Below, one piece after another: positions 4,007-20,557 of a DNA stretch of 64,000 nt. The stretch is from Candidatus Omnitrophota bacterium. GTDB lineage: Bacteria; Omnitrophota; Gorgyraeia; DTHP01. The stretch lies in NCBI GenBank assembly GCA_023819145.1, contig JAMWCW010000001.1, positions 2,400 to 66,399 on the forward strand, in the 5' to 3' direction. Numbering within the stretch: the stretch's first letter is position 1; each line of letters opens with the position of its first letter. Made by a program: the position numbers and the translations under genes. The notes beneath the pieces were generated by a model. That model saw only the letters and a program-made list of their open reading frames with translations, was not told the DNA's origin and did no database searches.

Positions 4007-4018
4007 AATTTTTCCTTT

Positions 4019-4101: not shown

Positions 4102-4142
4102 TTCGTTATTTGAGTTTCGAATTTTGAATAAAAGGAGTAGAA

Positions 4143-5177: not shown

Positions 5178-5179
5178 GT

Positions 5180-6763
5180 TTATTTAACCAAATTTGGTCT
5201 TTGTTTTTCGGGTATAGTAAAACTGAAGGTGGTTCCTTTTCCTAAAGTGGAATCTGCCCATATTTTTCCTTTATGCGCCTCAATGATTTTTTTACAAAGT
5301 GAAAGTCCCAATCCTGTTCCTTTCTTCTCCCGATTTATGGGATTATCTGCACGGAAGAATTCCGTAAACAGTTTTGGAAGGTCCTCAGGAGAGATTCCAA
5401 TTCCCGTATCGGAAATATCCGTTCTTATAAAGCCGTCTTCTCGCTTTATATTTATATATATCTTACCTTTAAGAGGCGTAAACTTTATTGCATTGCCCAG
5501 AATATTTATAAATACTCTTCTTAGATGGTCATAATCGGCGAAGATAGTATTGATGTTATCCTGAACTTCTAACTTTAATTCAATGTTTTTCTCTTCGATT
5601 TGAGGATTAATTAGTTCCAAAACATTGTTCAAAAGTTCTTTTAAGGGAATTTCTTTAATGTCCATCCCCACTTTACCTGCTTCAATGCGGGATATATCCA
5701 ATAGGTCATTGATTAACTTTGCCAGTTCCGAAGATTGTCGGTCAATTCTTTCCAGGCGTTCCTTCTGGACGGGAGCAATTTCACCTAACTTTCCTGTAGC
5801 AAGTATCGAGGCGTATCCTTTGATAGAGGTAAGGGGTGTGCGCAATTCATGGGCGACTGCTGCTACAAACTCCGATTTTATTTGGTTAAGTTTTTTTAGT
5901 TCCTCGTTTGCTTTTGCCAGTTCTTTTGTCCTTTCTTTTACCCGTACTTCCAATTCCTGATAAGAATGCCAGAGTTGTTCATAGAGGCGGGAGTTTTCTA
6001 TACCCTGTGCAATCTGGTTTGCTAAGATAGAGATAAGTTCTACATCTCCTTCTGTTACTCGGGAATAAAGCGATTCATTGCCCATGACTACTATACCGAT
6101 TACAATTTCTTTTAGATATATGGGCACAATGATTAAGGAACGAATTTTTAAGAGTTCTATCAATTCTTTTTCTTCAGAATTGGCAAGTTCCGGTCTTTCT
6201 ACGAGAATAGATTTACCTTCTCGGATAATATTTTTGAATTGGGAATGGTCTTCTATCTTTTTCTTAAATTGGGAAATGTCTTCTTCCACAAAGCCTATCC
6301 AATGTCTGCATTTTAACTTCTTTGTTTCTTCGTCTAATGTAATGATGAGGAATTTCTCAAAACCGAGTTTATGAATGAAATTTTCTTTAATAGAATTAAA
6401 AACCTCCTCTATATCAAAGGTCATATTTATGCTTCTTCCCAGCTCATGTAGCGTGTAGAGTCCGTTTATTTTCTTATCCAGTTCCTGTTGTATCTTGTTT
6501 AGCTGTAGGTCTGTTCTTACGATCAGTTTTGCCTGTTCATCCAATTCGTTATATGCCTGGCGCAACTTCTCAAAAGCGACTTCACTTACTTTTCTTTTTC
6601 TTTCCTCCGCTTCAATCATCCATAAGGCGGTAAGGAAAAATGCTACAAGGATTAAGATACGCATTATCTCTCCGGCATAGGGGCCAAAGATTTGATTGAG
6701 GAAAATACTGGCGATGATGCTGAGTACTGCGGTGATAAACAAAATGCTTGTCTTTACACCCAT
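5180..6763 (-). CDS. sensor histidine kinase (two N-terminal TM helices, HisKA + HATPase_c)
   Basis: H-box 'AAVAHELRTPLTSIKGY'. ATP-binding region 'DTGIGISPEDLPKLFTEFFR...GTGLGLSLCKKIIEAHKGKIWADS...GTTFSFTIP'. N-terminal hydrophobic helices. Confidence 0.8.
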   Translation of the reverse strand: MGVKTSILFITAVLSIIASIFLNQIFGPYAGEIMRILILVAFFLTALWMIEAEERKRKVSEVAFEKLRQAYNELDEQAKLIVRTDLQLNKIQQELDKKINGLYTLHELGRSINMTFDIEEVFNSIKENFIHKLGFEKFLIITLDEETKKLKCRHWIGFVEEDISQFKKKIEDHSQFKNIIREGKSILVERPELANSEEKELIELLKIRSLIIVPIYLKEIVIGIVVMGNESLYSRVTEGDVELISILANQIAQGIENSRLYEQLWHSYQELEVRVKERTKELAKANEELKKLNQIKSEFVAAVAHELRTPLTSIKGYASILATGKLGEIAPVQKERLERIDRQSSELAKLINDLLDISRIEAGKVGMDIKEIPLKELLNNVLELINPQIEEKNIELKLEVQDNINTIFADYDHLRRVFINILGNAIKFTPLKGKIYINIKREDGFIRTDISDTGIGISPEDLPKLFTEFFRADNPINREKKGTGLGLSLCKKIIEAHKGKIWADSTLGKGTTFSFTIPEKQRPNLVK

Positions 6764-7969
6764 TTATTCTCCTATGGCTAAAACAGTAAAGGAAGCGTTT
6801 TGAAAATAAGTCTGTCCGATATTTATCTCCGAAGTAAGAGGAGCCTGTTCACCGTATGTATAGAATCCGGCAAGCGGGGTATTTTTGCCAAAAACTTCTC
6901 CCACTACTTCTATCTCATTATACTTATATCTCCCTAAGAGTTTTTCACGGGATATGGAACTGAAGGCAATTACTATTTTAGGTTTAGCACCATGGAGGTT
7001 TTTAAGGGAAGTGAGCGCAGCGTGAGAAGCAGCCTCAAGGACTGAATCCTTATTCCCAATCATCAAACGAATTTCCTCTCCCTGAGGAACTTCCGCTCCA
7101 CAGACAAGGGCACCTTCTTCGGTAACCGTGTAGGGATTCCTTAATAAATACTCTTCCTCTCCGGCTATAGCCATACCCAAAGGATAGAGAATAGCTAAGC
7201 TCGCGAGCGGTTCGGTTTTTAATTCCATAACCTCTGTGCCGAAATATTCCTCATATATTTTTACTGCGGGTTGATTATCTATTTCATAGATGATATTAGC
7301 TATTGCTTTTGTTACCTTGTGGGGTTTTCCTAATGGCTTCCAACCATGGCGGGAACCTATGCCAAAACTTAAATCTCCCCCCATCAGTACCCCTACAACG
7401 CTTTCCGAGAGCACCAAACGGTGGCAATATTGATAGGTTTTTCTAAAAAGGAAGTCATCTCCCGAAGACCCGCCGACAATGGGAAAACTTCTTCCCAAGA
7501 TTTCTTGGATTCCTTTTAAAACATCTGCACAATTTCCTGTTAAGCCATCGGGAAAAATCACAAATAGCTTTCTTCTCAGTTCTCCTTGGGCACCGCTTTC
7601 AAGAAATTTACGATTGGCGCTTAAAGCAGACTTACGCCCAGCATCATGCGAGTTTCGGTTTATTCCTTCTCCCCAACCGAGAGCGAACTGGAGTTCATCA
7701 GATTTTAGCAGCACCACCGTTACCGAATGTCTTGCTACTCCCAAAGAGGTAAACTCTCCCGCCGTGCTTGAACCAACCAGAGGAGTTTCTTCTAAAATTG
7801 ATTTTATTCCCTCTATAGTTTTTTCCTGCTCATGCACTGCAGAGATAAAGGCAAAAGCCAAATGAGGATAATCTTCTTTTAAGTCTCTTAAAGCAATTTT
7901 TGCTGCTTCTTTACCTGCAGAAAAACCTGCGGGATTTTTACTTTGTCCTATGCCTACTTTTAAAGCCAT
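6764..7969 (-). CDS. FIST-domain sensory protein (FIST_N/FIST_C)
   Basis: N-terminus 'MALKVGIGQSKNPAGFSAGKEAAKIALRDL...AFAFISAVHE' and overall ~400-aa size and composition fit the FIST N/C architecture. Translationally coupled to the kinase: its stop abuts the start at 6763/6764. Confidence 0.55.
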   Translation of the reverse strand: MALKVGIGQSKNPAGFSAGKEAAKIALRDLKEDYPHLAFAFISAVHEQEKTIEGIKSILEETPLVGSSTAGEFTSLGVARHSVTVVLLKSDELQFALGWGEGINRNSHDAGRKSALSANRKFLESGAQGELRRKLFVIFPDGLTGNCADVLKGIQEILGRSFPIVGGSSGDDFLFRKTYQYCHRLVLSESVVGVLMGGDLSFGIGSRHGWKPLGKPHKVTKAIANIIYEIDNQPAVKIYEEYFGTEVMELKTEPLASLAILYPLGMAIAGEEEYLLRNPYTVTEEGALVCGAEVPQGEEIRLMIGNKDSVLEAASHAALTSLKNLHGAKPKIVIAFSSISREKLLGRYKYNEIEVVGEVFGKNTPLAGFYTYGEQAPLTSEINIGQTYFQNASFTVLAIGE

Positions 7970-8016
7970 AATTTACTAAATCATAGAATAATCGTTTGCA
8001 TATGTCAATAAATTTC

Positions 8017-8045
8017 TTGACATTAATACCTTAGCCTAATAAAAT
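8017..8045 (+). promoter_or_regulatory. sigma70-like promoter for tRNA-Glu (TTGACA, 17 nt, TAAAAT)
   Basis: -35 TTGACA 8017-8022, 17-nt spacer, -10 TAAAAT 8040-8045, ~45 nt upstream of the tRNA. Same -10 hexamer as the tRNA-Leu promoter. Confidence 0.35.
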
Positions 8046-8091
8046 AAAATACCTAATTTTACATTTTGATTTTCACACTTTTGGACTTTTT

Positions 8092-8166
8092 GGCCCCATC
8101 GTCTAGCCCGGTCTAGGACGGGAGATTCTCAGTCTTCAAACACCGGTTCAAATCCGGTTGGGGCTA
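8092..8166 (+). tRNA. tRNA-Glu, anticodon CUC
   Basis: Acceptor GGCCCCA/TGGGGCT (G1.U72) plus A73. 'TCGTCTAG' D-arm typical of tRNA-Glu. Anticodon stem GGAGA/TCTTC with loop TTCTCAG. 4-nt variable loop. T-arm ACCGG-TTCAAAT-CCGGT. Confidence 0.7.
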
Positions 8167-8179
8167 TTAGGAGGAACAA

Positions 8180-10633
8180 ATGTCAAAAATTGAGGGAGGA
8201 AACAAAATGAATGAGGTATTGGTAAAAGGAAAGAGGAAGGCTAAGTCAATGAAGGAAGAGGAGATGAGTTTAAAGACAGATTACGGATATTTTACAAATG
8301 ATGGTAAAGAATATGTAATTATTAACCCCCAGACTCCTATGCCTTGGATTAATGTGATTTCCAATGGAGATTACGGTTTTGTTCTTTCCCAGACGGGCTC
8401 AGGTTTCTCTTGGTACAAAAATGCAAATTTAAGCAGAATCAACCGCTGGGACCAGGACTTAATTACCGATACCTGGGGTAAATATATTTATATTCGTGAT
8501 GAAAAAACAAAAAAGTTTTGGTCGGTGTCTTGGAAACCTACATGTCCCTCCTTTAAAAATTATAGAGTAACCCATGGGATTGGCTATACGAAGATTTATT
8601 CTTTATACGAAAACATTGAACAAGAACTTCTGCTTTTTGTTCCGCTCGAAGAACCTTTGGAGATTTGGTGTCTTAAATTGAAAAATCTTTCCCGCCAGGC
8701 ACGCAAGTTGAATATTTTTTCTTATTTAGAGCTTCTTCTGGGAAATGCTATGGACCCCCACCGTGAATTTCAGAAGACATTTATTGAAACCGATTTTGAT
8801 AATAAAACAAAAATATTCTGGGGAAGAAAAAGAAAGATTCCTGTCCCTGACCATATCTCTACTGGACTTTCCGAATACCCCATTTCTTGCTTCCACAGTG
8901 TGAATATTGAACCCATTGCCTATGAAGGAGAAAAGCGTAATTTTATTGGGATGTATAGAAATCCTGCTTATCCGCTTGCCTTAGAAAGAAAGAAACTTAC
9001 CAATACAACGGGGAGATGGTTTGATTCCGTCGCCAGTTTACAGGTAGAGCTTAAACTTGCTTCTCAGGAAGAAAAGACTGTTGTCTTTATTTTAGGCTCT
9101 TGCGAAGATGAGAATTATGTTAAAGAATTGGTCAAAAAATACAGGAATGTAGAAAAAGTAGAAATGGCTTTTCAGAAAACAAAAGATTTTTGGGAGGGTT
9201 TACTTTCGGGAATAAAGGTAGAAACTCCTGACCCTGCCTTTAACTTTATGACCAATTACTGGTTAAAGTATCAGGCAATTTCCGGAAGGCTTTGGGCAAG
9301 AACCGCCTATTACCAGTCTTCAGGTGGCTTTGGTTTTCGTGACCAGTTACAGGATTCCTTAGCTTGTCTTCCTTTAGCACCCGAGCTTACCAAGAAACAG
9401 ATTATGCTCCATGCCGAGCATCAGTTTACGGATGGCACAGTTTATCATTGGTGGCATAACCTTTTGGAACGCGGTGCCCATACCAATATGTCCGATAATC
9501 TCTTATGGTTAGTCTATATTACTCTTCATTACCTGAATGAGACAGCGGATTTCTCTATCTTAGATGAAAAGGTGAAATACGTTGATGGAGAATCTGAGCC
9601 AATATATAATCATTGTATTAAAGCAGTGGATAAAGTTCTTTCTCGTTTTTCTCCACGCGGACTTCCTTTGATTGGAGCGGGAGATTGGAACGATGGACTT
9701 TCCAGTGTGGGTTTAGAGTGGAAAGGCGAAAGCATCTGGTTAGGACATTTTCTCTATGGGATATTGCAGCAATTCGCTCCCATTTGCGAAAAAAGAAACG
9801 ATTTTGAAAGAGCGGGTAATTATCGGAAACGCGCTGAGGAATTAAGGGAAAATATCAACAAATACGCTTGGGATGGTGCTTGGTATATAAGAGCAACCAA
9901 AGACAATGGAGAAGTTTTAGGTTCTTCATCCTCGAAAGAAGGAAAGATTTTCCTCAATGCTCAAACCTGGGCAGTGATTCATGGAACCGCTACGCCGGAA
10001 AGGGCCAAAGAATGTATGGACTCGGTAGAGAAACATCTTTTGCGTGAATACGGACCTTTACTGTTTTATCCAGGATACACTCAACCCGATAAAGAAATCG
10101 GTTATCTTTCTCGTTATGGTGAGGGCTTAAGGGAAAATGGGGGAGTCTATACCCATGCAGCCACCTGGACGATTATTGCGGAAGTGATTTTGAAGCGACC
10201 AGAGAAAGCTTATGAGGTTTATTCCAAGATTTGCCCCGCAAAAAGAGGGTTAAAACCAGAGATTTATATGGCAGAACCTTATGTTACACCGGGTAATATT
10301 GATGGCCCGCAATCTGCCTATTTTGGAAGAGGGGGCTGGACTTGGTATAGCGGTTCGGGTGCTTGGTTATTCAAGGTGTCCTGTGAGTGGATTTTAGGTA
10401 TCCGCCCCACATTAGAAGGTTTATTAATTGACCCCTGCATTCCCAAAGATTGGGCAGGTTTTAAGGTAGTCAAGAGATTCCGTGGGGCAACTTACGAGAT
10501 AGAGATAGAAAATCCCCAAAAGGTAAGTTTCGGAGTAAAAGAAATACTTCTTGATGAACGAAGGTTGGAACACTCCCTTATTCCTGCGCTTTCTGATGGC
10601 AAAACCCATCAGGTGAGAGTGGTTTTAGGATAG
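8180..10633 (+). CDS. GH94-family glycoside phosphorylase (cellobiose / beta-glucan phosphorylase-like)
   Basis: RBS AGGAGG. No signal peptide. N-terminus 'KEYVIINPQTPMPWINVISNGDYGFVLSQTGSGFSWYKNANLSRINRW' closely resembles the conserved N-terminus of cellobiose phosphorylases ('EYVIT.P.TP.PWINY...GGGYSFY.DA.L.RITR', recalled from memory). ~817 aa is the typical GH94 size. 'GDWNDGL' region is consistent with the (alpha/alpha)6 catalytic domain. Confidence 0.65.
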   Translation: MSKIEGGNKMNEVLVKGKRKAKSMKEEEMSLKTDYGYFTNDGKEYVIINPQTPMPWINVISNGDYGFVLSQTGSGFSWYKNANLSRINRWDQDLITDTWGKYIYIRDEKTKKFWSVSWKPTCPSFKNYRVTHGIGYTKIYSLYENIEQELLLFVPLEEPLEIWCLKLKNLSRQARKLNIFSYLELLLGNAMDPHREFQKTFIETDFDNKTKIFWGRKRKIPVPDHISTGLSEYPISCFHSVNIEPIAYEGEKRNFIGMYRNPAYPLALERKKLTNTTGRWFDSVASLQVELKLASQEEKTVVFILGSCEDENYVKELVKKYRNVEKVEMAFQKTKDFWEGLLSGIKVETPDPAFNFMTNYWLKYQAISGRLWARTAYYQSSGGFGFRDQLQDSLACLPLAPELTKKQIMLHAEHQFTDGTVYHWWHNLLERGAHTNMSDNLLWLVYITLHYLNETADFSILDEKVKYVDGESEPIYNHCIKAVDKVLSRFSPRGLPLIGAGDWNDGLSSVGLEWKGESIWLGHFLYGILQQFAPICEKRNDFERAGNYRKRAEELRENINKYAWDGAWYIRATKDNGEVLGSSSSKEGKIFLNAQTWAVIHGTATPERAKECMDSVEKHLLREYGPLLFYPGYTQPDKEIGYLSRYGEGLRENGGVYTHAATWTIIAEVILKRPEKAYEVYSKICPAKRGLKPEIYMAEPYVTPGNIDGPQSAYFGRGGWTWYSGSGAWLFKVSCEWILGIRPTLEGLLIDPCIPKDWAGFKVVKRFRGATYEIEIENPQKVSFGVKEILLDERRLEHSLIPALSDGKTHQVRVVLG

Positions 10634-10646
10634 ATATTTTTATCCC

Positions 10647-10675
10647 TTGACAAAATTCAAAAAGCGTGTTATACC
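10647..10675 (+). promoter_or_regulatory. extended -10 promoter (TTGACA, 17 nt, TGtTATACC)
   Basis: cccTTGACAaaattcaaaaagcgTGtTATACC. The motif is shared with promoters at 31908 and 54988. Confidence 0.45.
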
Positions 10676-10758
10676 TTTTAAAGAAAGTTTCTTACTTTAT
10701 AAAACGAAAAATAATTAACTTAAACAAAATCAGAGATTAGAAAAGGAGGTGAAAAACA

Positions 10759-11337
10759 ATGAGTAAAGTTTTAGGAGGTTTGTTTTTAGCAGTGCTGCTG
10801 TTGGTGACCTCTTCTGCTTCTGCCCAAGAGAAGCTGGTGATTGCCGATTTTGACAGCGGAGTAAAACCCAACAACATCGGTGGCGACTTTGGGGCTTGGG
10901 ATAAAGACCCTGCGGATTTTACCCAGATGTGTGTGGAGAGTTTTAATGTTACGGAAAGATATGGCGAATCTGGTTTTTGCATGGCCATTGATTATGATGT
11001 TGACTCTCCTAATCCTGCCTACAATGGTTTCTGGATGAAATTAAACGGCGCAGATTTTTCCAAGTATAAGAAACTATTGCTTAAGGTAAAAGGAGATGTC
11101 ACCAAAGGTTACACCAAAGTAGTTAAAATAGAATTGAAGAATAATAAAGGAGAAGTAGGGAAATACTATATTACGGAAGTAGCCGATAATTGGAAAACTT
11201 TAGAAATACCCTTCTTAAAATTCGCTGGAATTACCGACTTCTCTAATATGACTGAATTTGTTATTGTTTTTGAAGATTGGCGTTCGACTAAAAAAGAGGG
11301 AAGAATCTATATTGATGATTTGATGGTAAGCGAATAA
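10759..11337 (+). CDS. small secreted protein consisting of one beta-sandwich CBM/CIA30-like module
   Basis: RBS AAAGGAGGTGA. Signal peptide 'LFLAVLLLVTSSASA'. Motifs 'DFDSGVKPNNIGGDFGAWDKDP', 'NPAYNGFWMKLNG', 'KGEVGKYYITEV', 'EFVIVFED...KEGRIYIDDL' are shared with the 13424 paralog and with module copies in other proteins of the locus. Confidence 0.5.
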   Translation: MSKVLGGLFLAVLLLVTSSASAQEKLVIADFDSGVKPNNIGGDFGAWDKDPADFTQMCVESFNVTERYGESGFCMAIDYDVDSPNPAYNGFWMKLNGADFSKYKKLLLKVKGDVTKGYTKVVKIELKNNKGEVGKYYITEVADNWKTLEIPFLKFAGITDFSNMTEFVIVFEDWRSTKKEGRIYIDDLMVSE

Positions 11338-11355
11338 TCCTAAAAGTTAGGGAAA

Positions 11356-11387
11356 TTGGGCGCAGCAAATTTGCTGTGCCCAATTTT
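11356..11387 (+). terminator. intrinsic terminator-like hairpin + T-run
   Basis: ttgggcgcagcaaa/tttgctgtgcccaa near-palindrome (one G.U) followed by tttt. Confidence 0.45.
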
Positions 11388-11395
11388 AACCGCCA

Positions 11396-13324
11396 ATGAA
11401 AAAAGTTTTTATATTTTTTATAATTTTTTTATTATCAGTAGATTATGCTTTCCCCCAGGCAAAGAAATTGTCCCTTGTCCCCGAGAAACTTTTTACCACT
11501 AAATATATCGATGATTTTAATGATGGAGCTCTACCTAATCTTTTGGGAGGGGGGATGAAGGTTGAAGTAGAATCTCCTTCTGAACTTTCTTTTTCCCACG
11601 ATAGAGCACAAGCCTTGGAGAGTAAAGGATACAGTCTTAAATTAAAGTATCGTCTTTATCCTCAGAAAAAAGCAAACCTGATTATTGATTTAAATGAGAT
11701 TGATATCAGCCAGGCATATGGAATTTCTTTTTGGATAAAGTATTTAAAAAGGCCAAAACTGGAAATTTTCTTGGAGGATGGCAAGGGTAATCGGACAGGC
11801 GCGGCTTTAGAGAAATATCTTATTCCCCAAGAGAACTGGCAGAAGATTTCGCTAATGCGGGGAGATTTTCCTGATATTGATTTCAACTGTTTGAAAAACC
11901 TTACACTTACCATCTACGCTTCTGAGGTGGAGACGGGAGAATTTTTTCTGGATGAATTTTTATTTTTTGGTCCTTCCTATCTATTTTTTGAATCTATAAA
12001 GGATAATCTCTATGGCTTTCCTGTAAAAAAGAATTTAGACTCTAAATATTTACTAAATAAACCCGATGAATTTTTATTAAAAACCATTGCCCACGATACC
12101 TGGCTTTATTTTAAAAACTCGGTAGATAGAAAGACGCATTTACCAGTTGACTGGATTGATTTGGATGAAACTAAGGAATACCGCATTGGAGACTATACTT
12201 CGCCGACAAATATTGGGCTATATTTTCTTTGTTTAGTAGGTGCCTATGATTTAGGTTTAATTACTAAAGAAGAAGCAGTAGAGCGTATTGGGAATACCCT
12301 TGAGACTTTAAAAAAACTTTCCCGCTGGAAAGGTCTATATTACAATTGGTATTCCACGACGAACTTGCAGATTACCCGCAGATATATTTCGTCAGTAGAT
12401 AATGGTTGGTTAGCTGCCGGACTTATTGTTGTCAGACAGACATTCCCCGAACTATATATTCCCTGCAGTGCGCTTTTAAAAGAGATGGATTTCTCTATCC
12501 TTTATGACCCAGTAGAGGGAAAGTTATACTTAGGCTACGAGTTAAACCGTGAACCACCCGTGCCCACTCCCTATCATTATGGTCAAATTGCTACGGAGCC
12601 ACGGGTTACCTCTTTGGTGGCTATTGGGAAAGGTGATGTCCCTCCTGACCACTGGTTTAGAATCTTTCGGACTTTACCTATTTCTTGGAATTGGCAGAGG
12701 CAGAAACCACAAGGAAGATATCGGGAGTATTTAGAAATAGATGTTTTTGAGGGCTATTATGAATATAAAGGGTTTAAAATTGTTCCTTCTTGGGGTGGAA
12801 GCTTGTTTGAATTCCTGATGCCTTTGTTGGTTCTGAAAGAGAAAGAGCTTGCTCCTAGAGGTCTGGGATTAAATAATTTAAACGCCATAAAAGCACACAT
12901 CGATTATGCCTTAAATGAGCAAAAGTATCCTGTCTGGGGACTTTCTCCTTGCGCTACTCCCGAGGGAAGATATGGAGGGTATCATGAATACGGAGTAAAA
13001 GATTTGGGAGCTAAAGGATATTCCGATGAGGGTGTAATTACTCCCCATGCATCAATATTAGCCATTGATTATCTTCCTGAGGAGGTGGTGAAGAATATTC
13101 GCCAGTTGCTTAAAAATTTTGATTTATACGGTGAGTATGGAATGTATGATTCTGTGGATATTCATACCCAGAAAGTTGCTTCACGTTATCTTTGTCTTGA
13201 CCAGGGAATGATTTTTGTTTCTTTGGCAAATTACCTGACAAAAGGGAAAATTCGTGAGCGCTTTCACCAAGACCCGATAATTAACAGCGTGGAGTATTTG
13301 TTAGAAATAGAAGAATTTTTCTAA
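11396..13324 (+). CDS. secreted protein: N-terminal CBM-like module + (alpha/alpha)6 glycoside-hydrolase-like domain (glucoamylase/GH144-like, tentative)
   Basis: Signal peptide. N-terminal module ('...NWQKISLMRGDF...TGEFFLDEFLFFG') resembles the CBM-like modules elsewhere in the locus. The remainder ('GDYTSPTNIGLYFLCLVGAYDLG', 'WKGLYYNWYSTTN', 'SSVDNGWLAAGLIVV') has the feel of glucoamylase-like (alpha/alpha)6 barrels. Paralogs at 14479-15916 and in the 36259 ORF. Confidence 0.4.
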   Translation: MKKVFIFFIIFLLSVDYAFPQAKKLSLVPEKLFTTKYIDDFNDGALPNLLGGGMKVEVESPSELSFSHDRAQALESKGYSLKLKYRLYPQKKANLIIDLNEIDISQAYGISFWIKYLKRPKLEIFLEDGKGNRTGAALEKYLIPQENWQKISLMRGDFPDIDFNCLKNLTLTIYASEVETGEFFLDEFLFFGPSYLFFESIKDNLYGFPVKKNLDSKYLLNKPDEFLLKTIAHDTWLYFKNSVDRKTHLPVDWIDLDETKEYRIGDYTSPTNIGLYFLCLVGAYDLGLITKEEAVERIGNTLETLKKLSRWKGLYYNWYSTTNLQITRRYISSVDNGWLAAGLIVVRQTFPELYIPCSALLKEMDFSILYDPVEGKLYLGYELNREPPVPTPYHYGQIATEPRVTSLVAIGKGDVPPDHWFRIFRTLPISWNWQRQKPQGRYREYLEIDVFEGYYEYKGFKIVPSWGGSLFEFLMPLLVLKEKELAPRGLGLNNLNAIKAHIDYALNEQKYPVWGLSPCATPEGRYGGYHEYGVKDLGAKGYSDEGVITPHASILAIDYLPEEVVKNIRQLLKNFDLYGEYGMYDSVDIHTQKVASRYLCLDQGMIFVSLANYLTKGKIRERFHQDPIINSVEYLLEIEEFF

Positions 13325-13423
13325 TAAACTCTTAAACGCAAAACCCTAAACTCTAATTTAAGTTATTTTAGAGTTTGAAAATTTCGCGTCTTGGATTTTT
13401 AAATGAAAAGGAGGTGAGTTTTT

Positions 13424-14155
13424 ATGTTTAAAAGGTTTTTTTGGTCTTTGTTGGTTATTTTTCTCCTTCTGGGCATAAGTCTCTCCTTATATAGTTGCGC
13501 TCCCAAGAAGGAAGCAAGTAAACCCGAGGAGAAAAAAGAGGAGGCAAAAGGGGTAATTACTGAATCTGCTAAAGTAGAGGAGCCGGTACAGGAGATTGAG
13601 GTAACCGGTGAACTTGCTAAGCCCAAGCTTAAACTCACCCGCGAAGGTGCCTTAATCGCTGCTGACTTTGACACCTGCAAAAAACCTAATAATCTGGGAG
13701 GAGACTTTGGCGCCTGGAACAAAGACCCTAATGATTTTTCTCAAGGATGTTTTGACAGTTTTGTTTCTACTATTAAACGTGGAGACGATGGTTGTTCGAT
13801 GCAAATAATGTATGATGTGGATTCTGTGAATCCTGCCTACAATGGATTCTGGATGAGATTGGAAGGTGTTGACCTTTCTGCCTACAAGGCAATTTCTTTC
13901 TGGTTAAAGGGCGATGAGATGCGTGGATTTACAAAGGTATTTAAGGTAGAGTTGAAAAACACCAAGGGGCATTTAGGAAAATATTATGTAACCGAAGTGA
14001 CTAAAGACTGGAAAGAGATTGTTATCCCTCTGGATAAATTTGCCGGGTTAGAAGACAGGACTTCCATGCATGAATTTGTGATTGTTTTTGAGGACAGGGT
14101 CGCCACTAAAAAAGAGGGAGCAATCTATATTGACGATATTACATTCTTAAAATAG
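13424..14155 (+). CDS. secreted CBM/CIA30-like module protein (paralog of 10759 ORF) with Lys/Glu-rich N-terminal linker
   Basis: RBS AAAAGGAGGTGA. 'ADFDTCKKPNNLGGDFGAWNKDPNDFSQGC', 'NPAYNGFWMRLEG', 'KGHLGKYYVTEV', 'EFVIVFED...KEGAIYIDDI' align motif-for-motif with the 10759 ORF. Confidence 0.5.
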   Translation: MFKRFFWSLLVIFLLLGISLSLYSCAPKKEASKPEEKKEEAKGVITESAKVEEPVQEIEVTGELAKPKLKLTREGALIAADFDTCKKPNNLGGDFGAWNKDPNDFSQGCFDSFVSTIKRGDDGCSMQIMYDVDSVNPAYNGFWMRLEGVDLSAYKAISFWLKGDEMRGFTKVFKVELKNTKGHLGKYYVTEVTKDWKEIVIPLDKFAGLEDRTSMHEFVIVFEDRVATKKEGAIYIDDITFLK

Positions 14156-14211
14156 GAAAATAAGGCAAGCATTGCTTAAAATTCTGCCTTAAATTAAATT
14201 TCTGGTCCACC

Positions 14212-14240
14212 TTGACGATTCAGATTTTTCATGCTATACT
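14212..14240 (+). promoter_or_regulatory. extended -10 promoter (TTGACG, 17 nt, TGcTATACT)
   Basis: ccaccTTGACGattcagatttttcaTGcTATACT. 'cttgacgatt' also occurs in the promoter-like site at 20388. Confidence 0.4.
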
Positions 14241-14281
14241 TTTTGTAGATAAGGCACAATGCTGCGGGCGGTAAATAGGAA

Positions 14282-14312
14282 GGCGGAGTTAAAATTTTAG
14301 CTCCGCCTTTTT
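14282..14312 (+). terminator. rho-independent terminator (GGCGGAG...CTCCGCC + TTTTT)
   Basis: 7-bp GC-rich stem, 12-nt loop, then a U-run. Lies ~40 nt downstream of the 14212 promoter's predicted start site. Confidence 0.5.
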
Positions 14313-14478
14313 ATGTTTCTCTATTTGTATTTGTGGTTTTATACCGATTTCTTTCCTTCAAGAGATGGTTGTAAATTCGTGGCAGAGGGTTTAATTCTTG
14401 AAGTGCCTCTTGACACTGTCCTATTTATAAGCTACATTTTTAAAGAGAGTTTTTTATTTATAAAAGAGAGGGTTTAAA

Positions 14479-15916
14479 ATGTCATTAAAGCAAAAATTTA
14501 ATTATGTGTTTCTCTTTGTCTCGATATTGTTTTTTACTTTTTTTTCTACAAATTCAATAAGCGCATTTTTTTATTCCCAGAGTCTACCTCTTTTTAATCC
14601 CGATTTAAACACACCCCTTTTACAATCTTCCGAACAGCGGTCACAATTAAACATCCAGACCATTCAGCGCGAGCAGAGCAATTATTTTTTTATATAACAT
14701 TGGTATAGACCCTGATACTAACCTTCCGCATAACTATGTTTTTGTCAAAAGTGATGGTGAATTGGAAATAGGATTCTACAATACCCCCACGGATATTGGG
14801 TACTACCTAGCATGTCTGGTGGGAATAGCAAAGGGAGATATAAGAAATGATACCGTCAGTCAAACAGATGCCATCAACAGACTAATTCATGCCTTGGAGG
14901 TTCTTAAATCCGCTCCCAAAAAAGATGGTTTACTTTATTGGTATGATATTTTTTATCCTGAGATAAAAATCTCTCCTACAAATAGTTATGTCTCAGCAAT
15001 AGATAATGCATTTTATTCTGCAGCATTGGGTTTGATTATAGGGGCTTTTATTGACGACCAAAGCCAGTCGGCGCAGAGACTTGTAAATTTGGCTTTTGAA
15101 CTACTTGCTGAACAGAAAGAAGGTTGGTCTCAACTTTATGACCCAGAGAGAAAACTTTTGCTTGGAGGTTATTCAACAACTGGCGAAGACCCTTTGTACT
15201 ATATAGACCGGGCATACAACGAAGGACGTTTGGCAACGCTGATGGCAATAATTTTGGGAGATGTTCCGCGGGATGCTTGGGAGAATTTAGAAGAATTTTA
15301 TTTAGATTATACCTTATCTCATGGCAAAAAGATGAAAATTCTTGCCCCTTGGGAAAGCGCTTTCCAGGCATGGATGCCGTTGGTCTTTGTGCCCGAGATG
15401 GAATGGTCTCCTCAAGGATTTAAGATTGCCCACCAGAGATATTTAGAAGTACAGATTGACTGGGCTCAACGGGAAAATATGCCTGCTCTTTACGCCGAAT
15501 GTTCCGACCCTTTTACGAAAGATAAATATCAATATATTACAGGTATAGCCATACCTGGTGCCTCCGAGTCTTCTGCGTGGGGTGTGCCCATTCGCTCCGA
15601 TATAGGTTCAGTATATGCAATTGGACTTGCTTATATGGTAGATGAAAAAGTTGGAGAAGATTTTTTTGCCAAATTAATTACGAGGTTTCCTGAAATAAGT
15701 TCTACGCTAGGTTGGTTTGATTCAGTGGGAAGGAAAGGAACAGAACCAGAGGTTTTTTGGGCTACGAGTAGGGCTTATGTGGCCAAGAACCAATTTGTAT
15801 TACTTTCTGCCCTGAATTACCAAAATAACCATCGCTATTTTACACGATTTTTAGAGGTTATAGGAAAATTAGAGTATATAAGAAGTCTTTATAATAACAA
15901 ATCATTTAATTTTTAA
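14479..15916 (+). pseudogene. (alpha/alpha)6 GH-like paralog of 11396 ORF lacking the CBM module; reading frame broken at a T7 homopolymer (ORFs 14479-14697 and ~14651/14762-15916)
   Basis: Signal-peptide ORF 14479-14697 ends '...SNYFFI*' inside 'tattttttta'. The downstream frame reads 'IIFLYNIGIDPDTNLPHNYVFVKSDGELEIGFYNTPTDIGYYLACLVG', homologous to 'WLYFKNSVDRKTHLPVDWIDLDETKEYRIGDYTSPTNIGLYFLCLVG' of the 11396 ORF. Removing one T from the 7-T run fuses the two frames. Confidence 0.5.
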
Positions 15917-15920
15917 TATA

Positions 15921-18503
15921 ATGGATTATTTTTCTATAAAAAAAAGTAGTTTCTGGCTATGTTTAGTCTTCTTACTTTTGTCTCTAAAGGAATTAAGTGC
16001 CTTTATCGGCGTTGGTGATGATAATCTTTATAATATTTCTGCTACAAGTGGTGATTATTACCAAGTTGTAAGTCCTGCAGTTACTTCTTTGTTTCAACGG
16101 GCAAAAACAGAAATCTTTCCCCCTGTATTTAGTGATACTTTAGCTGCTTCCATTGGTATTATAACACAATACAGTTGGAAGAGTTTTCCCGATAATCCCA
16201 ATCAGAGTATTTCCGCAGTATACGACTATGACCCCTATTTTGGTGCGCTTCCTATTTTGCGTATTGATTATGATGTTTCTTCTTACTCCGCAGGAGTATT
16301 TAACGGTTATGCCTTAAAAATTAATACACAGGATTTTTCGCAAGATTTTTATAACCCTATTGTTTTCTATATTCGCGGTGACCCGACATTAGGGTTTACC
16401 CGGAGGTTGAAGATAGAATTTAAAAATAGCCGTGGCAAAGTAGGTTCATATATCATTGAGGGAATTAGTGAAAACTGGCAGAAGATTACTATTGATAAAA
16501 CCCGCGTAGGCAGAGATTTTTCCTTTAGAAGCGATTGGCAGGATATAGAAGAGATAGTTCTGGTATTTGAAGAATGGGGAGTTACTGCGCAGGAGGGAAG
16601 AATATATTTAGCAGGATTTACTTATCCTGAATCCTGGCAGGTTGCTTCTGCAGTAGAAAATATTTACGCAGAATTGAGCCTTCTTTCTCCTGATGAACAA
16701 CAAAGAGTGCTTTCGCAGATTGTTGGTCCGGGGGTAGCCTATAGTTTCAAACCTTTAGATATCGCATCCATAAAAAATTGGATTTTATCTTCTCAAGAGC
16801 ACATTGCTAACGATAGCGGAATTTACTCCTTGAACCAGATGCTTAGAAGTTTAGGTTCTCATACTCCTTCTTTTTCTGATTTAAGAATTGCGGGGGTAGT
16901 CTCTTCCCTGCTGGCAGGGAAAGAGGGAAGAGGAGGGTATAATTCTTCTTTATATGACTTATACCGTTCTGCACAGCTAAACGGTCATCCGATTTATGCA
17001 TTTAGACTTCCTAATTTTTCCGCCTTGGAAGATTTCTTTAACAAAACAGGTAAAATTCCCCTTGTTGCCGAGTTAAAGACTGGAGAGTTTGTCCTCTTAA
17101 ATGGATTTGAGAGAGGCGGGTTTCTCTGGCTAACCAAATTTGTCAAATTTGATTGCTTGGGTGAAGAGGTAACGATGAGCGAACAAGAGTTTACTCAACT
17201 CTGGACAGGTAACATTCTTAGTTTAAGAACTGCCTCTTCCTATCAGCCGTTAGCCAATGAAGAGGTTTTTCAAGGAACAAGTATAACTTCCTATATTGTA
17301 GAAGAAATGTTAGAGAGAGCAAAAGAACTTTCTAATACAGCATATCACCCTCCAGAGATAAAGCCCGTGAGTGTGCTTGACCCTCCTCTTTATGGTCGTC
17401 CTGAGGCAGAGGGTTTAGTTTATCAGGAATATCTGGCTATCGGAGGAGACAAATTTTATGATGATGGTTTGTGGTGGTTTCAAGCAAGACCGCGGGGAAG
17501 TCAAAATAAACTTCCGCTTAAGGTATTCTTGTATGACCCGAAAAGTCTTCGTTATAGTGAAGTTCCTTATGATTTTAATCGCTATAATTATTCTCGTGCT
17601 ACACCGCCAATTACCTATGTTCCTCCAGAAGGGAGGTATATTACTGCTTTAGATATTGGACACATTCTGGTATCAGGAAGTTTTCCCCAGTTTTTTACCA
17701 TTGGTGGGGATGGTTACATGCGTTTTGTGCCTTTGACAGAAGGTAGGGAAATGGGAGCATCTTTCCGAGTAGCTGGGCAAAACATTACCCACTCCCGGCA
17801 GGGAGGGGATCCTTACGATGAGAGTTTTCCTATTGTCAGGGAATTGTATGTGAAAAAGGTTTCGGAGAGCGTTATCAATCTCGTTGCCCTCGTGGATGCT
17901 GAGGGTTTTACCGGGGTTTTAGATATGTATCTCTATCCTCAGGAAATAACCCGTATGGAGGTAGATGCTCGGTTTTTTATGCGACGCGATATGCTAATTT
18001 CCCAGGAGCCAGATACAGGTTTTGCGGGGTTTAGCAGTATGTTTTTCTTGGGCGATGAAAAAAATGACGCAATGATTGGAGAAGTACGTCATACTCCTTG
18101 GAATCCTTATGATGAAGCCCATGATTCCGATTATTTAGTGGTGCATTTTGCGGATGGGAGTAGGGTTGAGCAACTAATTAATAGACCCTTCGAAGCAGGA
18201 AGGGTAGATAGATACGACTTTTCTAAGCCCGATACAGAAATTGTGGGGTTTTCTTTGCAACAGAGAGATAGAAATCCCAGCCACTACCGTGCTTTTCCTA
18301 CCTCTGATTATACTAATCGTCCATCTTTTGATTTAAGAGTGCCTTCCTCCAACATTCCTCTTAGTGTAAAACTCTATGAGATATCTACCGATAACGAGTA
18401 TGTAGATAATATAGTCGCTTTTTTGACCATGGGGAGGAGTTTATACCGTGGAGAAGAAGTACATATAAGATATGAGGTAACCGCTTATGATTACCCGGGA
18501 TAA
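15921..18503 (+). CDS. secreted 860-aa protein: N-terminal CBM/CIA30-like module + possible C39-like (papain-fold) domain
   Basis: Signal peptide 'FWLCLVFLLLSLKELSA'. Module 'FNGYALKINTQDF...KVGSYIIEGISENWQKITI...EEIVLVFEEW...QEGRIYLAGF'. Mid-region 'GEFVLLNGFERGGFLWLTKF...EVTMSEQEFTQLWTGNILSL' resembles the C39-like pattern seen in the ORFs at 60918 and 62579. Confidence 0.4.
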   Translation: MDYFSIKKSSFWLCLVFLLLSLKELSAFIGVGDDNLYNISATSGDYYQVVSPAVTSLFQRAKTEIFPPVFSDTLAASIGIITQYSWKSFPDNPNQSISAVYDYDPYFGALPILRIDYDVSSYSAGVFNGYALKINTQDFSQDFYNPIVFYIRGDPTLGFTRRLKIEFKNSRGKVGSYIIEGISENWQKITIDKTRVGRDFSFRSDWQDIEEIVLVFEEWGVTAQEGRIYLAGFTYPESWQVASAVENIYAELSLLSPDEQQRVLSQIVGPGVAYSFKPLDIASIKNWILSSQEHIANDSGIYSLNQMLRSLGSHTPSFSDLRIAGVVSSLLAGKEGRGGYNSSLYDLYRSAQLNGHPIYAFRLPNFSALEDFFNKTGKIPLVAELKTGEFVLLNGFERGGFLWLTKFVKFDCLGEEVTMSEQEFTQLWTGNILSLRTASSYQPLANEEVFQGTSITSYIVEEMLERAKELSNTAYHPPEIKPVSVLDPPLYGRPEAEGLVYQEYLAIGGDKFYDDGLWWFQARPRGSQNKLPLKVFLYDPKSLRYSEVPYDFNRYNYSRATPPITYVPPEGRYITALDIGHILVSGSFPQFFTIGGDGYMRFVPLTEGREMGASFRVAGQNITHSRQGGDPYDESFPIVRELYVKKVSESVINLVALVDAEGFTGVLDMYLYPQEITRMEVDARFFMRRDMLISQEPDTGFAGFSSMFFLGDEKNDAMIGEVRHTPWNPYDEAHDSDYLVVHFADGSRVEQLINRPFEAGRVDRYDFSKPDTEIVGFSLQQRDRNPSHYRAFPTSDYTNRPSFDLRVPSSNIPLSVKLYEISTDNEYVDNIVAFLTMGRSLYRGEEVHIRYEVTAYDYPG

Positions 18504-20355
18504 ATTGGGGATTGTGGTCTTAATTTTTGGTCTGTTAGTCGGAGAGGGTGAGGCTTTTTATCTGGGAAAGAGTAATGATTATAATCTTCCTCCCGCAGGG
18601 GAGACTACGACTTTTATGCAGGCTAAGAGTGAAATACCGGCGATAACAAATGCCGCCTTACCTGATGTCTTAACCGATACAGATGGTTCCTTGGGGATTG
18701 ATGCTCCTTACTGCAAATATATTTTAATTTATAACCTTACTCCTTTTTACATTGCGTTGGACGATAATTTAAGCCGAATAATTGATAGTGCTTTAACGAA
18801 TTTTGGCATTGAGGACATAAGGTCCTATCTTTCTGCTTATAACTTAGAAATAATAGATTTAAGGTCAGCAATATTCCTCCTTTTAAAATCTCCATACTAC
18901 GTTAACGGTAACCTTGCCCTTCCCGATGAGGCACTTTCTGGTTTAGATTCAAGAACAAGTGCACTCTTTTTGCTTGCCCAAGAATTATCACAAATGATTC
19001 CTTATGCGGATAAAGAATATATTCGTAATTTTAATGTTTCTATTGTTGAACCTGATATAAAATTAGGGCTATCTTATGAGAAGATAAAAAGCGTATTTCT
19101 TCAAGTCCGTCAACAGAAGATATTAGAGGGAAAAGTTGATTATGGTGTGTTTTATAAATATAAAGATGAGATAGAGCGAGCAGTAGTTTCCGCAATTGCC
19201 GGTTTTAATTATTCATCAGATCGTTTTCATCTCCTCTCTGAAGAGATTACGCCTCAGGCAAAAAATGATTTTTATAATCGGATTAGATTCTGGTTAAAGA
19301 CGCAGGAATACATTCCACCTGAGATATTTTCTCTTGTTGAGGATAAGGCAAAGGAATTATTTGATTCTCTTCGAATTAAGAAAGGGCTATTTCCTACAAG
19401 CCCCTGGCAGGGAGAGATTGCCCAGATCTATCGCCTTTTTGGAGGCGAGATTCCCAATCAACTTGAGCGGGGGAAACTCTCTCCTTTTGCTGACTGGGGT
19501 GAGGATATTTATAAGCGTCTCTGGGATATTTCCAGTAATATTGAAAAAGCGTATTCTTCCTTTGGCGTTTTGCTTAAAGGTCCAGATATGACTTTGGAGC
19601 AGTTAAAGACAAAAATAGATTCTCTTGGTCCTGCAATTGTCGGTATAAATAGGGAAGGTAGAAAAGATTTTGTCAAGGTTTTAGAAATTTTCTCGCCGGA
19701 TAAAGGGGAAGGCACAGTAACTTGTCAAGATGCAAATGGAAATGTTTTTGCTCTATTGCTTGGTGAATTTTTTACTTATTGGGACAGGTTTGTTTACATT
19801 CCTGAAGAAAAAAGTATTTCGGCTTCGGTAATTTCTGATTTTGATTTTTCAAATGATAGATTTGGTTTAATTAAAGGTTATGGCCAGTGGACGATTAATG
19901 AATTTGATGATTTAAAGGCAAAAATTGGTATAAACACAAATATTCCTTTATCATCCACTTTACCTTATTTTTATACCCAATATCAGATTGGGGGAGAGAA
20001 AACTTACAAATATGCTGGCTATTTCCAGACTGGCATATGGCTTACTTTTAAAGAAGACATAAAGTCGCTATTATTACGGGGCAGTGCCTTAAGTTTTGAT
20101 GCTTATGTTTCCGCTTATCCAGGAATTAAGTATGTAAGGATAGAACTGAAAGAAGATGAAACAGGAAGAATAATTAGTGAATTCATCATCCCCCGCGAAC
20201 GCCTCAATTTAGCAAACTGGAATACTTTTAAGATTCCCATTCACTATTATCCTGCGGGAACATTAGTGCTTACTTTGGGGGTAATCGGAACCTATCCCGG
20301 TCTTTACGCCCCCCAGAACCATTTTCTGGCGATTGACCGCCTTTATATTGAATAG
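18487..20355 (+). CDS. secreted 622-aa protein with C-terminal CBM/CIA30-like module
   Basis: Start overlaps the previous stop by 17 nt. Signal peptide 'LGIVVLIFGLLVGEGEA'. C-terminal module '...YVRIELKEDETGRIISEFIIP...NWNTFKIPI...LVLTLGV...HFLAIDRLYIE'. Confidence 0.4.
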   Translation: MITRDKLGIVVLIFGLLVGEGEAFYLGKSNDYNLPPAGETTTFMQAKSEIPAITNAALPDVLTDTDGSLGIDAPYCKYILIYNLTPFYIALDDNLSRIIDSALTNFGIEDIRSYLSAYNLEIIDLRSAIFLLLKSPYYVNGNLALPDEALSGLDSRTSALFLLAQELSQMIPYADKEYIRNFNVSIVEPDIKLGLSYEKIKSVFLQVRQQKILEGKVDYGVFYKYKDEIERAVVSAIAGFNYSSDRFHLLSEEITPQAKNDFYNRIRFWLKTQEYIPPEIFSLVEDKAKELFDSLRIKKGLFPTSPWQGEIAQIYRLFGGEIPNQLERGKLSPFADWGEDIYKRLWDISSNIEKAYSSFGVLLKGPDMTLEQLKTKIDSLGPAIVGINREGRKDFVKVLEIFSPDKGEGTVTCQDANGNVFALLLGEFFTYWDRFVYIPEEKSISASVISDFDFSNDRFGLIKGYGQWTINEFDDLKAKIGINTNIPLSSTLPYFYTQYQIGGEKTYKYAGYFQTGIWLTFKEDIKSLLLRGSALSFDAYVSAYPGIKYVRIELKEDETGRIISEFIIPRERLNLANWNTFKIPIHYYPAGTLVLTLGVIGTYPGLYAPQNHFLAIDRLYIE

Positions 20356-20387
20356 AAAAACAAAAGCGAAAAAAAATCTTCCCTCCC

Positions 20388-20416: not shown

Positions 20417-20557
20417 TTATATGGAAAATAAAAAATTAAAAACATACATAATTATTACCTTATGGCTAAAAGGTAGAAAATGAAATATTTATTTTATATA
20501 AAAATTGCACTAGACAATTCCCTAGCGTATTTAAGGGAGGAAAGGGAGGAAAAACGG

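Follow-up and report, generated by a model that had tools for sequence, protein, structure and literature searches.

A candidate beta-1,2-glucan utilisation locus in an uncultured Omnitrophota bacterium

Gene content of the locus

The locus described here is a set of carbohydrate-active genes on a 64,000-nucleotide stretch of DNA, the window, from a Candidatus Omnitrophota bacterium (assembly GCA_023819145.1, contig JAMWCW010000001.1, positions 2,400 to 66,399). Its first gene encodes a cytoplasmic phosphorylase of glycoside hydrolase (GH) family 94. This is followed on the same, plus strand by genes for exported proteins in which carbohydrate-binding modules (CBMs) of CBM11-like type stand either alone or joined to catalytic domains of families GH193 and GH186, by a frameshifted GH192 gene and by two long open reading frames (ORFs) with GH144-type modules. 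The characterised members of GH144, GH192, GH193 and GH186 all act on beta-1,2-glucan (PMC12102758, PMC10514313), and it is as a candidate system for the utilisation of this polymer that the locus is considered. The window has a G+C content of about 38%, the plus strand holds nearly all of the genes from 8.2 kb onwards, and the best homologues of the window proteins are all found in metagenome-assembled genomes (MAGs) of 'Candidatus Omnitrophica/Omnitrophota'.

A sequence-only reading of the same DNA had singled out a signal-less GH94 enzyme followed by same-strand exported proteins combining CBM-like and (alpha/alpha)6 domains, an arrangement that is confirmed by Pfam, by the N-termini and by an AlphaFold2 (AF2) model. 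Given the length of the ORFs and the very high significance of their family matches, chance does not account for it. The downstream ORFs, named here by their first nucleotide, do belong to glycoside hydrolase families, namely GH193, GH192, GH186 and GH144. The GH144-like label that they had been given is appropriate for ORF 36259, as a divergent member (PF10091, E 2.3e-9), and has to be replaced by GH193 for ORF 11396 and by GH192 for 14479-15916. That reading had also passed over the CBM-only proteins at 10759-11337 and 13424-14155, the GH186 ORF at 15921-18503 and the GH144 domain in ORF 20480-31891.

The GH94 phosphorylase

The GH94 gene occupies 8207..10633 on the plus strand. Mechanical ORF calling places its start at 8180; the closest homologue (P0001, 808 amino acids, 86% identity) aligns from the second methionine, which is preceded by GGGAGG, so that the true start is probably 8207, giving a protein of 808 amino acids. 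Both parts of the family architecture, the N-terminal supersandwich and the (alpha/alpha)6 catalytic domain, are present, with full-length matches to PF06165 (E 1e-79, profile 1-251/251) and PF17167 (E 3.5e-122, 1-420/420), and the original GH94 call therefore holds. A hydrophobic N-terminus is absent and there is no signal peptide. The catalytic aspartate (codon 9692-9694) lies in a GDWNDG motif and aligns with D2528 of RrCGS (PMC11842490). The sequence-only reading had wished to see this residue and the phosphate-binding residues checked; the FRD and THA motifs are present as well, and at least 90% of 121 clade members keep their wider forms, FGFRDQLQD and ENGGVYTHA. As in cellobiose phosphorylase structures, the arginine of FRD and the histidine of THA would form the phosphate site.

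What kind of GH94 enzyme is this? The best sequence match in the PDB is the GH94 domain of Cgs, the Agrobacterium enzyme that synthesises cyclic beta-1,2-glucan (8rf9/8rf0, E 2e-166), ahead of cellobiose phosphorylase (CBP, E 7.5e-144) and of chitobiose phosphorylase, which also scores below it. The protein aligns only with Cgs residues 2029-2784, and is of the type of the Cgs C-terminal domain, here in stand-alone form. In the catalytic part it shares 40.8% of its residues with AtCgs and 35.2% with CtCBP (AtCgs and CtCBP share 29.6%), although this margin of 41% over 35% is not decisive. More informative are discrete features that the window enzyme and at least 90% of the 121 clade members share with Cgs: the 3-residue insert before FRD is absent, the 15-residue loop after the catalytic DWND is absent, a tyrosine stands at the position of CBP Glu649, and the motif ENGGxYTHA is present. 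In CBP the loop after DWND closes the acceptor (+1) site, and Glu649 (C. gilvus numbering) is at the +1 subsite.

These features bear directly on the reading in which the GH94 protein is an ordinary phosphorylase of cellobiose, cellodextrin or another beta-glucoside, with a substrate that is not that of its neighbours. This reading can appeal to the label 'cellobiose phosphorylase' given by JGI to members of the clade, to a length and domain order like those of CBP, with a full-length CtCBP alignment (E 7.5e-144), and to the known binding of beta-1,4 and beta-1,3-1,4 glucans by CBM11. It must, however, contend with the missing loop and insert and the tyrosine in place of Glu649, with the better score of Cgs, with a Pfam search that found no cellulase-family domain in the window, and with the recurrence across phyla of the pairing between GH94 and beta-1,2-glucanases of the SGL clan. 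We consider it to have only a small chance of being right. The beta-1,2-glucan part of the substrate originally suggested therefore stands, on the strength of the neighbouring families and of the Cgs-like GH94, and cellodextrin is much less likely.

Three narrower placements were considered and rejected. Membership of the cellobiose phosphorylase subgroup (EC 2.4.1.20) fails on the absent 15-residue loop and 3-residue insert and on the Tyr-for-Glu replacement; membership of the Lin1839/LpSOGP clade (EC 2.4.1.333) fails in that no LpSOGP chain appears among the PDB sequence matches at E <= 10; and a full Cgs is rejected because the protein is soluble, has 808 amino acids and has no glycosyltransferase (GT) domain with it in the window. 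ORF 8207 is a predicted beta-1,2-glucooligosaccharide phosphorylase, one that lies outside the Lin1839/LpSOGP clade and may yet function like an SOGP, a phosphorylase of 1,2-beta-oligoglucan.

The CBM-GH193 protein

The third gene of the locus, ORF 11396 (11396..13324, plus strand), encodes an exported protein of 642 amino acids that is matched in Pfam by PF10091/DUF3131. Its signal-peptide-like N-terminus is followed by a module of CBM11-like type, encoded by nt 11495-11971, and then by the catalytic domain, an (alpha/alpha)6 fold encoded by nt 12065-13318. When compared by blastp with the SGL-clan reference sequences supplied with the survey of Nakajima et al. 2025 (PMC12102758, supplement), it aligns over the full domain with the characterised GH193 enzyme SkSGL (36.6% identity over 476 amino acids, E 3e-93) and has 38-40% identity to the Sulfobacillus and Haladaptatus references. 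An AlphaFold model built from a 41-sequence alignment (predicted local distance difference test score, pLDDT, 91.3; predicted template-modelling score 0.87) consists of a signal helix, a beta-sandwich (residues 34-192) and an (alpha/alpha)6 barrel (residues 224-640). All of the top 20 PDB entries returned by Foldseek for this model are beta-1,2-glucan enzymes, and its N-terminal domain resembles CtCBM11 with a template-modelling (TM) score of 0.67-0.70.

The catalytic residues are consistent with this placement. Among 116 homologues D335 (base candidate), E401 (acid), E472 and F471 are invariant, and E401, D335 and F471 are the counterparts of SkSGL E246, D160 and the clan phenylalanine near the nucleophilic water. 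The motifs SSVDNG, SE(T/P)R and GGS(L/M)FE are common to ORF 11396 and SkSGL. Y529 is also invariant, and the tyrosine of clan subsite -3 could be mapped only inexactly.

GH189, the family of the Cgs transglycosylase domain, was considered for this protein and rejected. A GH189 entry, 8WY1, is the best PDB match in both sequence and fold, yet no GH193 structure has been deposited and the PDB ranking is therefore biased toward GH189; with blastp, GH189 references align in two pieces only and GH193 references do far better. The acid/base glutamate of the GH189 domain and its adjoining glutamate are kept, as E401 and E472, but the other GH189 marks are missing. The nucleophile E1442 of TiCGS corresponds to P518, a proline in 113 of the 116 homologues, the TiCGS pair His1536/His1537 is replaced by Leu-Asp, and the insertion of about 170 residues between alpha4 and alpha5 is absent (TiCGS residues from PMC10834661). 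ORF 11396 is most likely an inverting endo-beta-1,2-glucanase with an attached CBM.

Related loci and the distribution of the GH94 clade

The pairing of GH94 with SGL-clan genes is not confined to this genome. Seven related loci (L001-L007) were found via the protein database, and further ones by a scan with the clade alignment that took one genome per species. In all seven (7/7) GH94 has a PF10091 gene at a distance of one to three genes, and in L001 and L003 the order GH94, CBM11, GH193, CBM is repeated. The stand-alone-clade loci number 21 and stem from Omnitrophota, Anaerolineae, Ignavibacteriaceae, Neomarinimicrobiota, Melioribacteraceae and Acidobacteriota. An SGL-clan gene is present in the flanks that were fetched for 14 of them, while the remaining 7 are short or truncated contigs. 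Stand-alone relatives with at least 43% identity occur in Omnitrophota, Anaerolineae, Ignavibacteriaceae (including Ignavibacterium album), Neomarinimicrobiota, Melioribacteraceae, Acidobacteriota and Phycisphaerae. The next-closest relatives in the scan, at 35-40% identity, are mostly the C-terminal domains of true Cgs proteins, in which GH189 lies some 3.3 kb upstream. This recurrent synteny supports the order of events that had been proposed from the sequence, namely extracellular depolymerisation followed by intracellular phosphorolysis.

The related loci also put a missing component into perspective. The sequence-only reading had remarked on the lack of a transporter, and it is correct that Pfam finds none among the ORFs of the 64-kb window. 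An ABC solute-binding gene (SBP_bac_1) nevertheless adjoins GH94 in L002, L004, L005, L006 and L007, accompanied in L006 by two ABC permeases and in L004 by a ROK kinase. The absence of a transporter is thus a trait of the window and not of the system.

Two further groups of GH94 proteins were met in the course of this survey. The Omnitrophota loci L002 (17084-22373) and L007 (17558-18397) contain, some genes downstream of their stand-alone GH94, a second and much larger GH94-domain protein, of 1825 and 2049 amino acids respectively; neither has a recognisable GT or GH189 domain and they are therefore not canonical Cgs. In L021, L024, L052, L053 and L057, from Alphaproteobacteria, Gammaproteobacteria, Acidobacteriota and Massilia/Pseudoduganella, GH94 matches of about 37-39% identity stand beside XcSGL-like GH144 genes and not beside GH189. 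There is probably another stand-alone clade of Cgs-type GH94 enzymes that is paired with beta-1,2-glucanases.

The CBM-only proteins

On either side of the GH193 gene lies a gene for a small exported protein made up of a CBM11-like beta-sandwich, both on the plus strand and both above the Pfam gathering cut-off of 27 bits for CBM_11. ORF 10759 (10759..11337) encodes 192 amino acids, has a signal-like N-terminus and matches with E 1.1e-9 (39 bits); its paralog ORF 13424 (13424..14155) encodes 243 amino acids and matches with E 1.1e-7 (32.6 bits). The former is 61% identical to the latter and 39% identical to the module at the N-terminus of ORF 15921, and it has orthologues at the equivalent position in L001, L003 and L007. 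ORF 13424 is possibly lipid-anchored through LSLYSC, a lipobox read by eye. From their context the CBM11-like proteins are predicted to bind beta-1,2-glucan.

The GH186 protein and its neighbour

ORF 15921 (15921..18503, plus strand) encodes an exported protein of 860 amino acids with a CBM11/30-like module at about nt 16161-16613, a helical middle and a GH186 (OpgG/OpgD-type) domain at about nt 17298-18494 (Pfam MdoG, E 8e-32). The AF2 model has a pLDDT of 79.5, and the top 9 Foldseek hits are all OpgG or OpgD (E 6e-26 to 1e-23, TM about 0.62-0.66 on the target) at about 20% sequence identity. In OpgG, D361 is the general acid and D273 the base, with R332 as the associated arginine (PMC10514313); these three residues, D273, R332 and D361, are D735, R800 and D829 in ORF 15921, and at least 90% of 40 relatives keep them. 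The MdoG match covers profile positions 57-365 of 478 and ends at the C-terminus of the protein, from which the OpgG/OpgD C-terminal domain appears to be absent. The protein is predicted to be a beta-1,2-glucan hydrolase or transglycosylase. In proteobacteria the GH186 proteins OpgG and OpgD are biosynthesis factors for osmoregulated periplasmic glucans (OPGs), and in XcOpgD the activity is that of a cyclising transglycosylase (PMC10514313, PMC11228985).

The start of the next gene (ORF 18487, 18487..20355, plus strand) overlaps the end of the GH186 gene. It encodes 622 amino acids with a hydrophobic N-terminus and without a Pfam or NCBIfam match, and has 5 homologues only, all from Omnitrophota, one of which (NC818_00105, in an Omnitrophica MAG at NCBI) is 100% identical. 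Its position suggests that it may be part of the system. The middle of ORF 15921 (residues about 240-455) is helical, of low confidence and without a match; both this region and ORF 18487 contain a stretch that, by eye, is reminiscent of papain/C39-like modules.

The frameshifted GH192 gene

Between the second CBM gene and the GH186 gene, 14479..15916 on the plus strand had been taken as one ORF. It is split instead into the stretches 14479-14697 and 14762-15916, which are read in different frames because of a +1-nucleotide frameshift in a run of seven T at 14685-14691. Deletion of one T restores a protein of 478 amino acids with a signal-like N-terminus that phmmer and blastp place in GH192 (SGL-clan Group 1): it matches EeSGL1 (PDB 8XUJ) with a phmmer E of 4.3e-38, is 29% identical to that enzyme and 34.6% identical to the Omnitrophica reference HDL10154.1, and conserves EeSGL1 D149 and E221 as D175 and E248.

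The frameshift is either that of a pseudogene or a sequencing error. If the former, then the locus could be partly decayed, with GH192 and perhaps other genes reduced to pseudogenes and no working pathway here. The scans of genome and metagenome contigs found no intact orthologue of the GH192 gene, and the fetched related loci gave only cross-matches to GH193 genes. Single-base changes in homopolymers are, however, typical of assembly and sequencing errors, the remaining genes are long and intact with conserved catalytic residues, and the core four-gene module is kept in relatives, all of which makes decay of the locus very unlikely.

The GH144 giants and other downstream ORFs

A further SGL-clan module is embedded in a much larger protein. 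ORF 20480 (20480..31891, plus strand) encodes an exported protein of 3803 amino acids in which a GH144-type domain occupies residues 771-1160 (nt 22790-23959; PF10091, E 5e-24). The best PDB match of this domain is CpSGL (5gzh, E 4e-11), whose acid E211 and base candidate E142 correspond to E944 and D871, and the domain is 25.7% identical to a Caldiserica GH144 reference (E 4e-28). Further downstream, ORF 36259 (36259..40494, plus strand) encodes an exported protein of 1411 amino acids with a divergent GH144-like (alpha/alpha)6 module at about residues 217-747 (nt 36907-38499); its PF10091 match scores 37.5 bits (cut-off 27), and there are weak matches to 4gl3 (E 1.5e-6) and to GH144 references.

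Several features of these large proteins were noted in passing. ORF 20480 has no recognisable domain besides the GH144 module. Its residues 223-407 are 75% identical to residues 262-445 of the 603-amino-acid ORF 34432 (34432-36243), which suggests a recent domain duplication. Between 43767 and 52933, again on the plus strand, five consecutive ORFs match in Pfam only enzymes that are normally cytoplasmic (CofD, a weak ROK match, a partial phosphoglucose isomerase, 6-phosphogluconolactonase/glucosamine-6-phosphate isomerase and the N-terminal domain of phosphoribosyl pyrophosphate synthetase). All five begin with a hydrophobic stretch resembling a signal or anchor sequence, and most of the proteins are far longer than the canonical enzymes. 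L005 also encodes proteins of more than 3000 amino acids, with GPI and ROK domains.

Upstream elements and transcription units

A tRNA-Glu gene (anticodon CTC) lies directly 5' of the GH94 gene, at 8091..8167 on the plus strand (ARAGORN; Rfam RF00005, 52.8 bits). It is preceded by a promoter-like site, TTGACA-17-TAAAAT (8017..8045, plus strand), with 11 of 12 consensus matches, and a mirror site (8008-7980, minus strand) faces the divergent operon. Promoter-like sites are no more numerous in the region than shuffling would lead one to expect, and 8017..8045 is to be read as a consensus match only. As the tRNA lies between this near-consensus site and the GH94 start, tRNA-Glu(CTC) and the GH94 module may share one transcript. 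The Rfam scan returned two tRNAs only, the second being tRNA-Leu(AAG) at 4018-4102, and no riboswitch near the locus; an NCBIfam scan of ten ORFs gave no usable match.

At the other end of the module, after the fourth gene (GH94, CBM, GH193, CBM), is an intrinsic-terminator-like hairpin (14275..14314, plus strand) with an 18-pair stem followed by a T-run, the strongest terminator-like site within 7800-20600. A promoter-like site lies upstream of ORF 14479, and in L001 and L003 the four-gene module stops at the equivalent point. The hairpin and the promoter-like site indicate that GH94-CBM-GH193-CBM is probably one transcription unit and that the GH192, GH186 and GH144-giant genes probably form a second, genome-specific one.

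Divergently oriented on the minus strand is a trio of regulatory genes (4245..7969), assigned by Pfam to a FIST protein (6764-7969), a GAF-histidine kinase (5180-6763) and a REC-GGDEF response regulator (4245-5177), and a possible regulator of the locus. The trio is kept upstream of GH94 in L003 (5858-9592) with equal position and orientation, and this placement hints at control of the locus linked to cyclic diguanylate (c-di-GMP).

A proposed pathway and its alternatives

Beta-1,2-glucans are periplasmic osmoprotectants and host-interaction factors of many Gram-negative bacteria. To our knowledge little has been established about their natural consumers. The downstream enzymes all belong to beta-1,2-glucan families, which narrows the substrate of the locus to this polymer, and we assign a probability of roughly 0.7 to the reading that the locus serves its utilisation, a judgement made on sequence, predicted structure and synteny.

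The pathway would consist of three steps. In the first, exported binding proteins and endo-glucanases would bind beta-1,2-glucan, linear or cyclic, and cleave it either in the periplasm or on the cell surface, the candidates being the CBM11-like proteins, CBM-GH193, GH192 if its gene is intact, CBM-GH186 and the GH144 modules of the giants; this step is suggested by the families concerned, by the conservation of their catalytic residues and by the signal-like N-termini. The resulting beta-1,2-glucooligosaccharides would then enter through a transporter whose genes lie elsewhere in the genome, as is suggested by the ABC solute-binding genes that adjoin GH94 in related loci, one of which has permeases as well. 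Finally, the cytoplasmic GH94 enzyme would use phosphate to strip glucose from the non-reducing end, releasing alpha-glucose 1-phosphate that could enter glycolysis with ATP spared. The direction of the flux, towards degradation, is one that we infer.

A number of points weigh against this assignment. Signal peptides were called only from hydrophobic N-termini. According to Pfam the 64-kb window holds, besides no transporter gene, no gene for a beta-glucosidase or a phosphoglucomutase. The known ligands of CBM11 are beta-1,4 and mixed-linkage (beta-1,3-1,4) glucans and not beta-1,2-glucan, one of the glucanase genes is frameshifted, and the margin by which the GH94 sequence favours Cgs over CBP is slender. 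A conserved regulator of c-di-GMP type next door is more typical of polysaccharide production. We know of no characterised enzyme from the locus or from the stand-alone Cgs-type GH94 clade. Moreover, given the biosynthetic role of proteobacterial GH186 proteins and the transglycosylase activity of XcOpgD, ORF 15921 need not be degradative.

Some of these points belong to an alternative in which the bacterium makes or remodels its own periplasmic beta-1,2-glucans, of OPG-like or cyclic kind. The GH94 protein would then be a primer-forming or length-controlling phosphorylase, as inside Cgs, and the GH186 and SGL-clan enzymes would process the chains. Consistent with this are the closest solved relative of the GH94, which is the length-control domain of a synthase, the role of OpgG/OpgD in OPG biosynthesis and the cyclising activity of XcOpgD (PMC10514313, PMC11228985), the conserved REC-GGDEF/FIST/kinase trio that adjoins the locus, and the importer that Pfam did not find in the window. 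The Pfam search of the 64-kb window ORFs, however, found neither a GT2 (OpgH) or GT84 (Cgs) synthase domain nor an exporter. The GH193 protein is without the GH189 nucleophile and the characterised member of its family is an inverting hydrolase (PMC12102758), components for ABC uptake and a ROK kinase occur in related loci, and several CBM-only exported proteins suit the capture of an external polymer. A role in the making or remodelling of endogenous glucan is thus rather improbable.

More speculatively, and with low odds, the locus may serve a host-dependent or predatory way of life, in which exported beta-1,2-glucanases, one of them within a 3803-residue surface protein, would harvest the periplasmic beta-1,2-glucans, osmoregulated or cyclic, of Gram-negative neighbours, and in which the GH94 clade would have an undescribed activity. 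If so, one such activity would be phosphorolysis down to sophorose, which would account for the lack of an accompanying beta-glucosidase both here and in I. album.

Comparison with known systems

The utilisation reading can be set beside several systems that have been described. An equivalent one is the cluster of Ignavibacterium album, which contains a GH94 gene (IALB_1177), two GH144 genes (IALB_1179 and a second), the GH35 enzyme IaSGT (Kobayashi et al. 2022, PMC8861115) and IALB_1187, a homologue of the binding protein for beta-1,2-glucooligosaccharides (Sop-n), together with an ABC transporter (PMC8861115). The role proposed for that cluster, which was speculated, is an equal two-compartment model of degradation (PMC8861115). 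The GH94 of an I. album MAG (L014) has 48% identity to the window enzyme, and in both systems the GH94 is uncharacterised. The window differs in having GH193, GH192 and GH186 besides GH144, in its CBM11-like modules and CBM-only proteins, in carrying GH144 inside a protein of 3803 amino acids, and in the absence from the window of an ABC transporter, a TonB-dependent transporter or a GH35 transferase.

The cluster of Listeria innocua consists of the SOGP Lin1839, a GH3 beta-glucosidase and a Sop-n-binding ABC protein (PMC3960220). Here too a cytoplasmic GH94 phosphorolyses imported beta-1,2-glucooligosaccharides, as is proposed for the third step above. Listeria, however, has the GH3 beta-glucosidase and lacks exported glucanases, whereas the window shows the reverse, and Lin1839/LpSOGP belong to a remote GH94 clade that has an additional domain at the N-terminus (PMC10901819). 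Neither the LpSOGP paper nor the GH94 library paper (PMC9052796) gives information on the stand-alone Cgs-type clade.

With Cgs the window shares two domains: among solved structures ORF 8207 is closest to the GH94 domain of Cgs, and the GH193 domain is closest to its GH189 domain. In the window the cytoplasmic GH94 protein and the exported GH193 protein are polypeptides of their own, with no GT domain and no membrane helices, and compared with GH189 the GH193 domain has proline for the nucleophilic glutamate and is without the His-His pair and the alpha4-alpha5 insertion of about 170 residues. Cgs is a synthase, while the window locus is most likely degradative. A similar combination of likeness and difference applies to the OpgG/OpgD proteins of E. 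coli and OpgD of Xanthomonas (1TXK, 8IP1, 8X18), with which ORF 15921 shares the beta-sandwich fold and the Asp/Arg/Asp set; it has in addition an N-terminal CBM-like module and a helical middle, and no OpgH partner in the window. The characterised glucanases SkSGL (GH193), EeSGL1 (GH192) and CpSGL/XcSGL (GH144) have an acid glutamate and a base-candidate aspartate or glutamate that are kept in the window domains, which differ in being attached to CBM11-like modules or embedded in giants.

Members of 'Candidatus Omnitrophica' are already included in the sequence sets of SGL-clan Groups 1 and 2 (PMC12102758), and a search of the literature found nothing linking Omnitrophota specifically to beta-1,2-glucan. 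It is of some interest that an uncultured phylum of very small cells should invest so heavily in one polymer, with five enzyme families alongside several binding modules and a phosphorylase. A concrete enzyme target is offered by the stand-alone Cgs-type clade of GH94, which is widespread across phyla, and the value of the comparison lies in annotation and in the choice of targets for biochemistry rather than in a new principle. The enzyme families are all known, and the locus is a richly equipped new example and not a new kind of system, distinguished by its five beta-1,2-glucan enzyme families, by CBM11-like modules both fused and free, by GH144 within a protein of 3803 amino acids, and by a window without transporter or beta-glucosidase.

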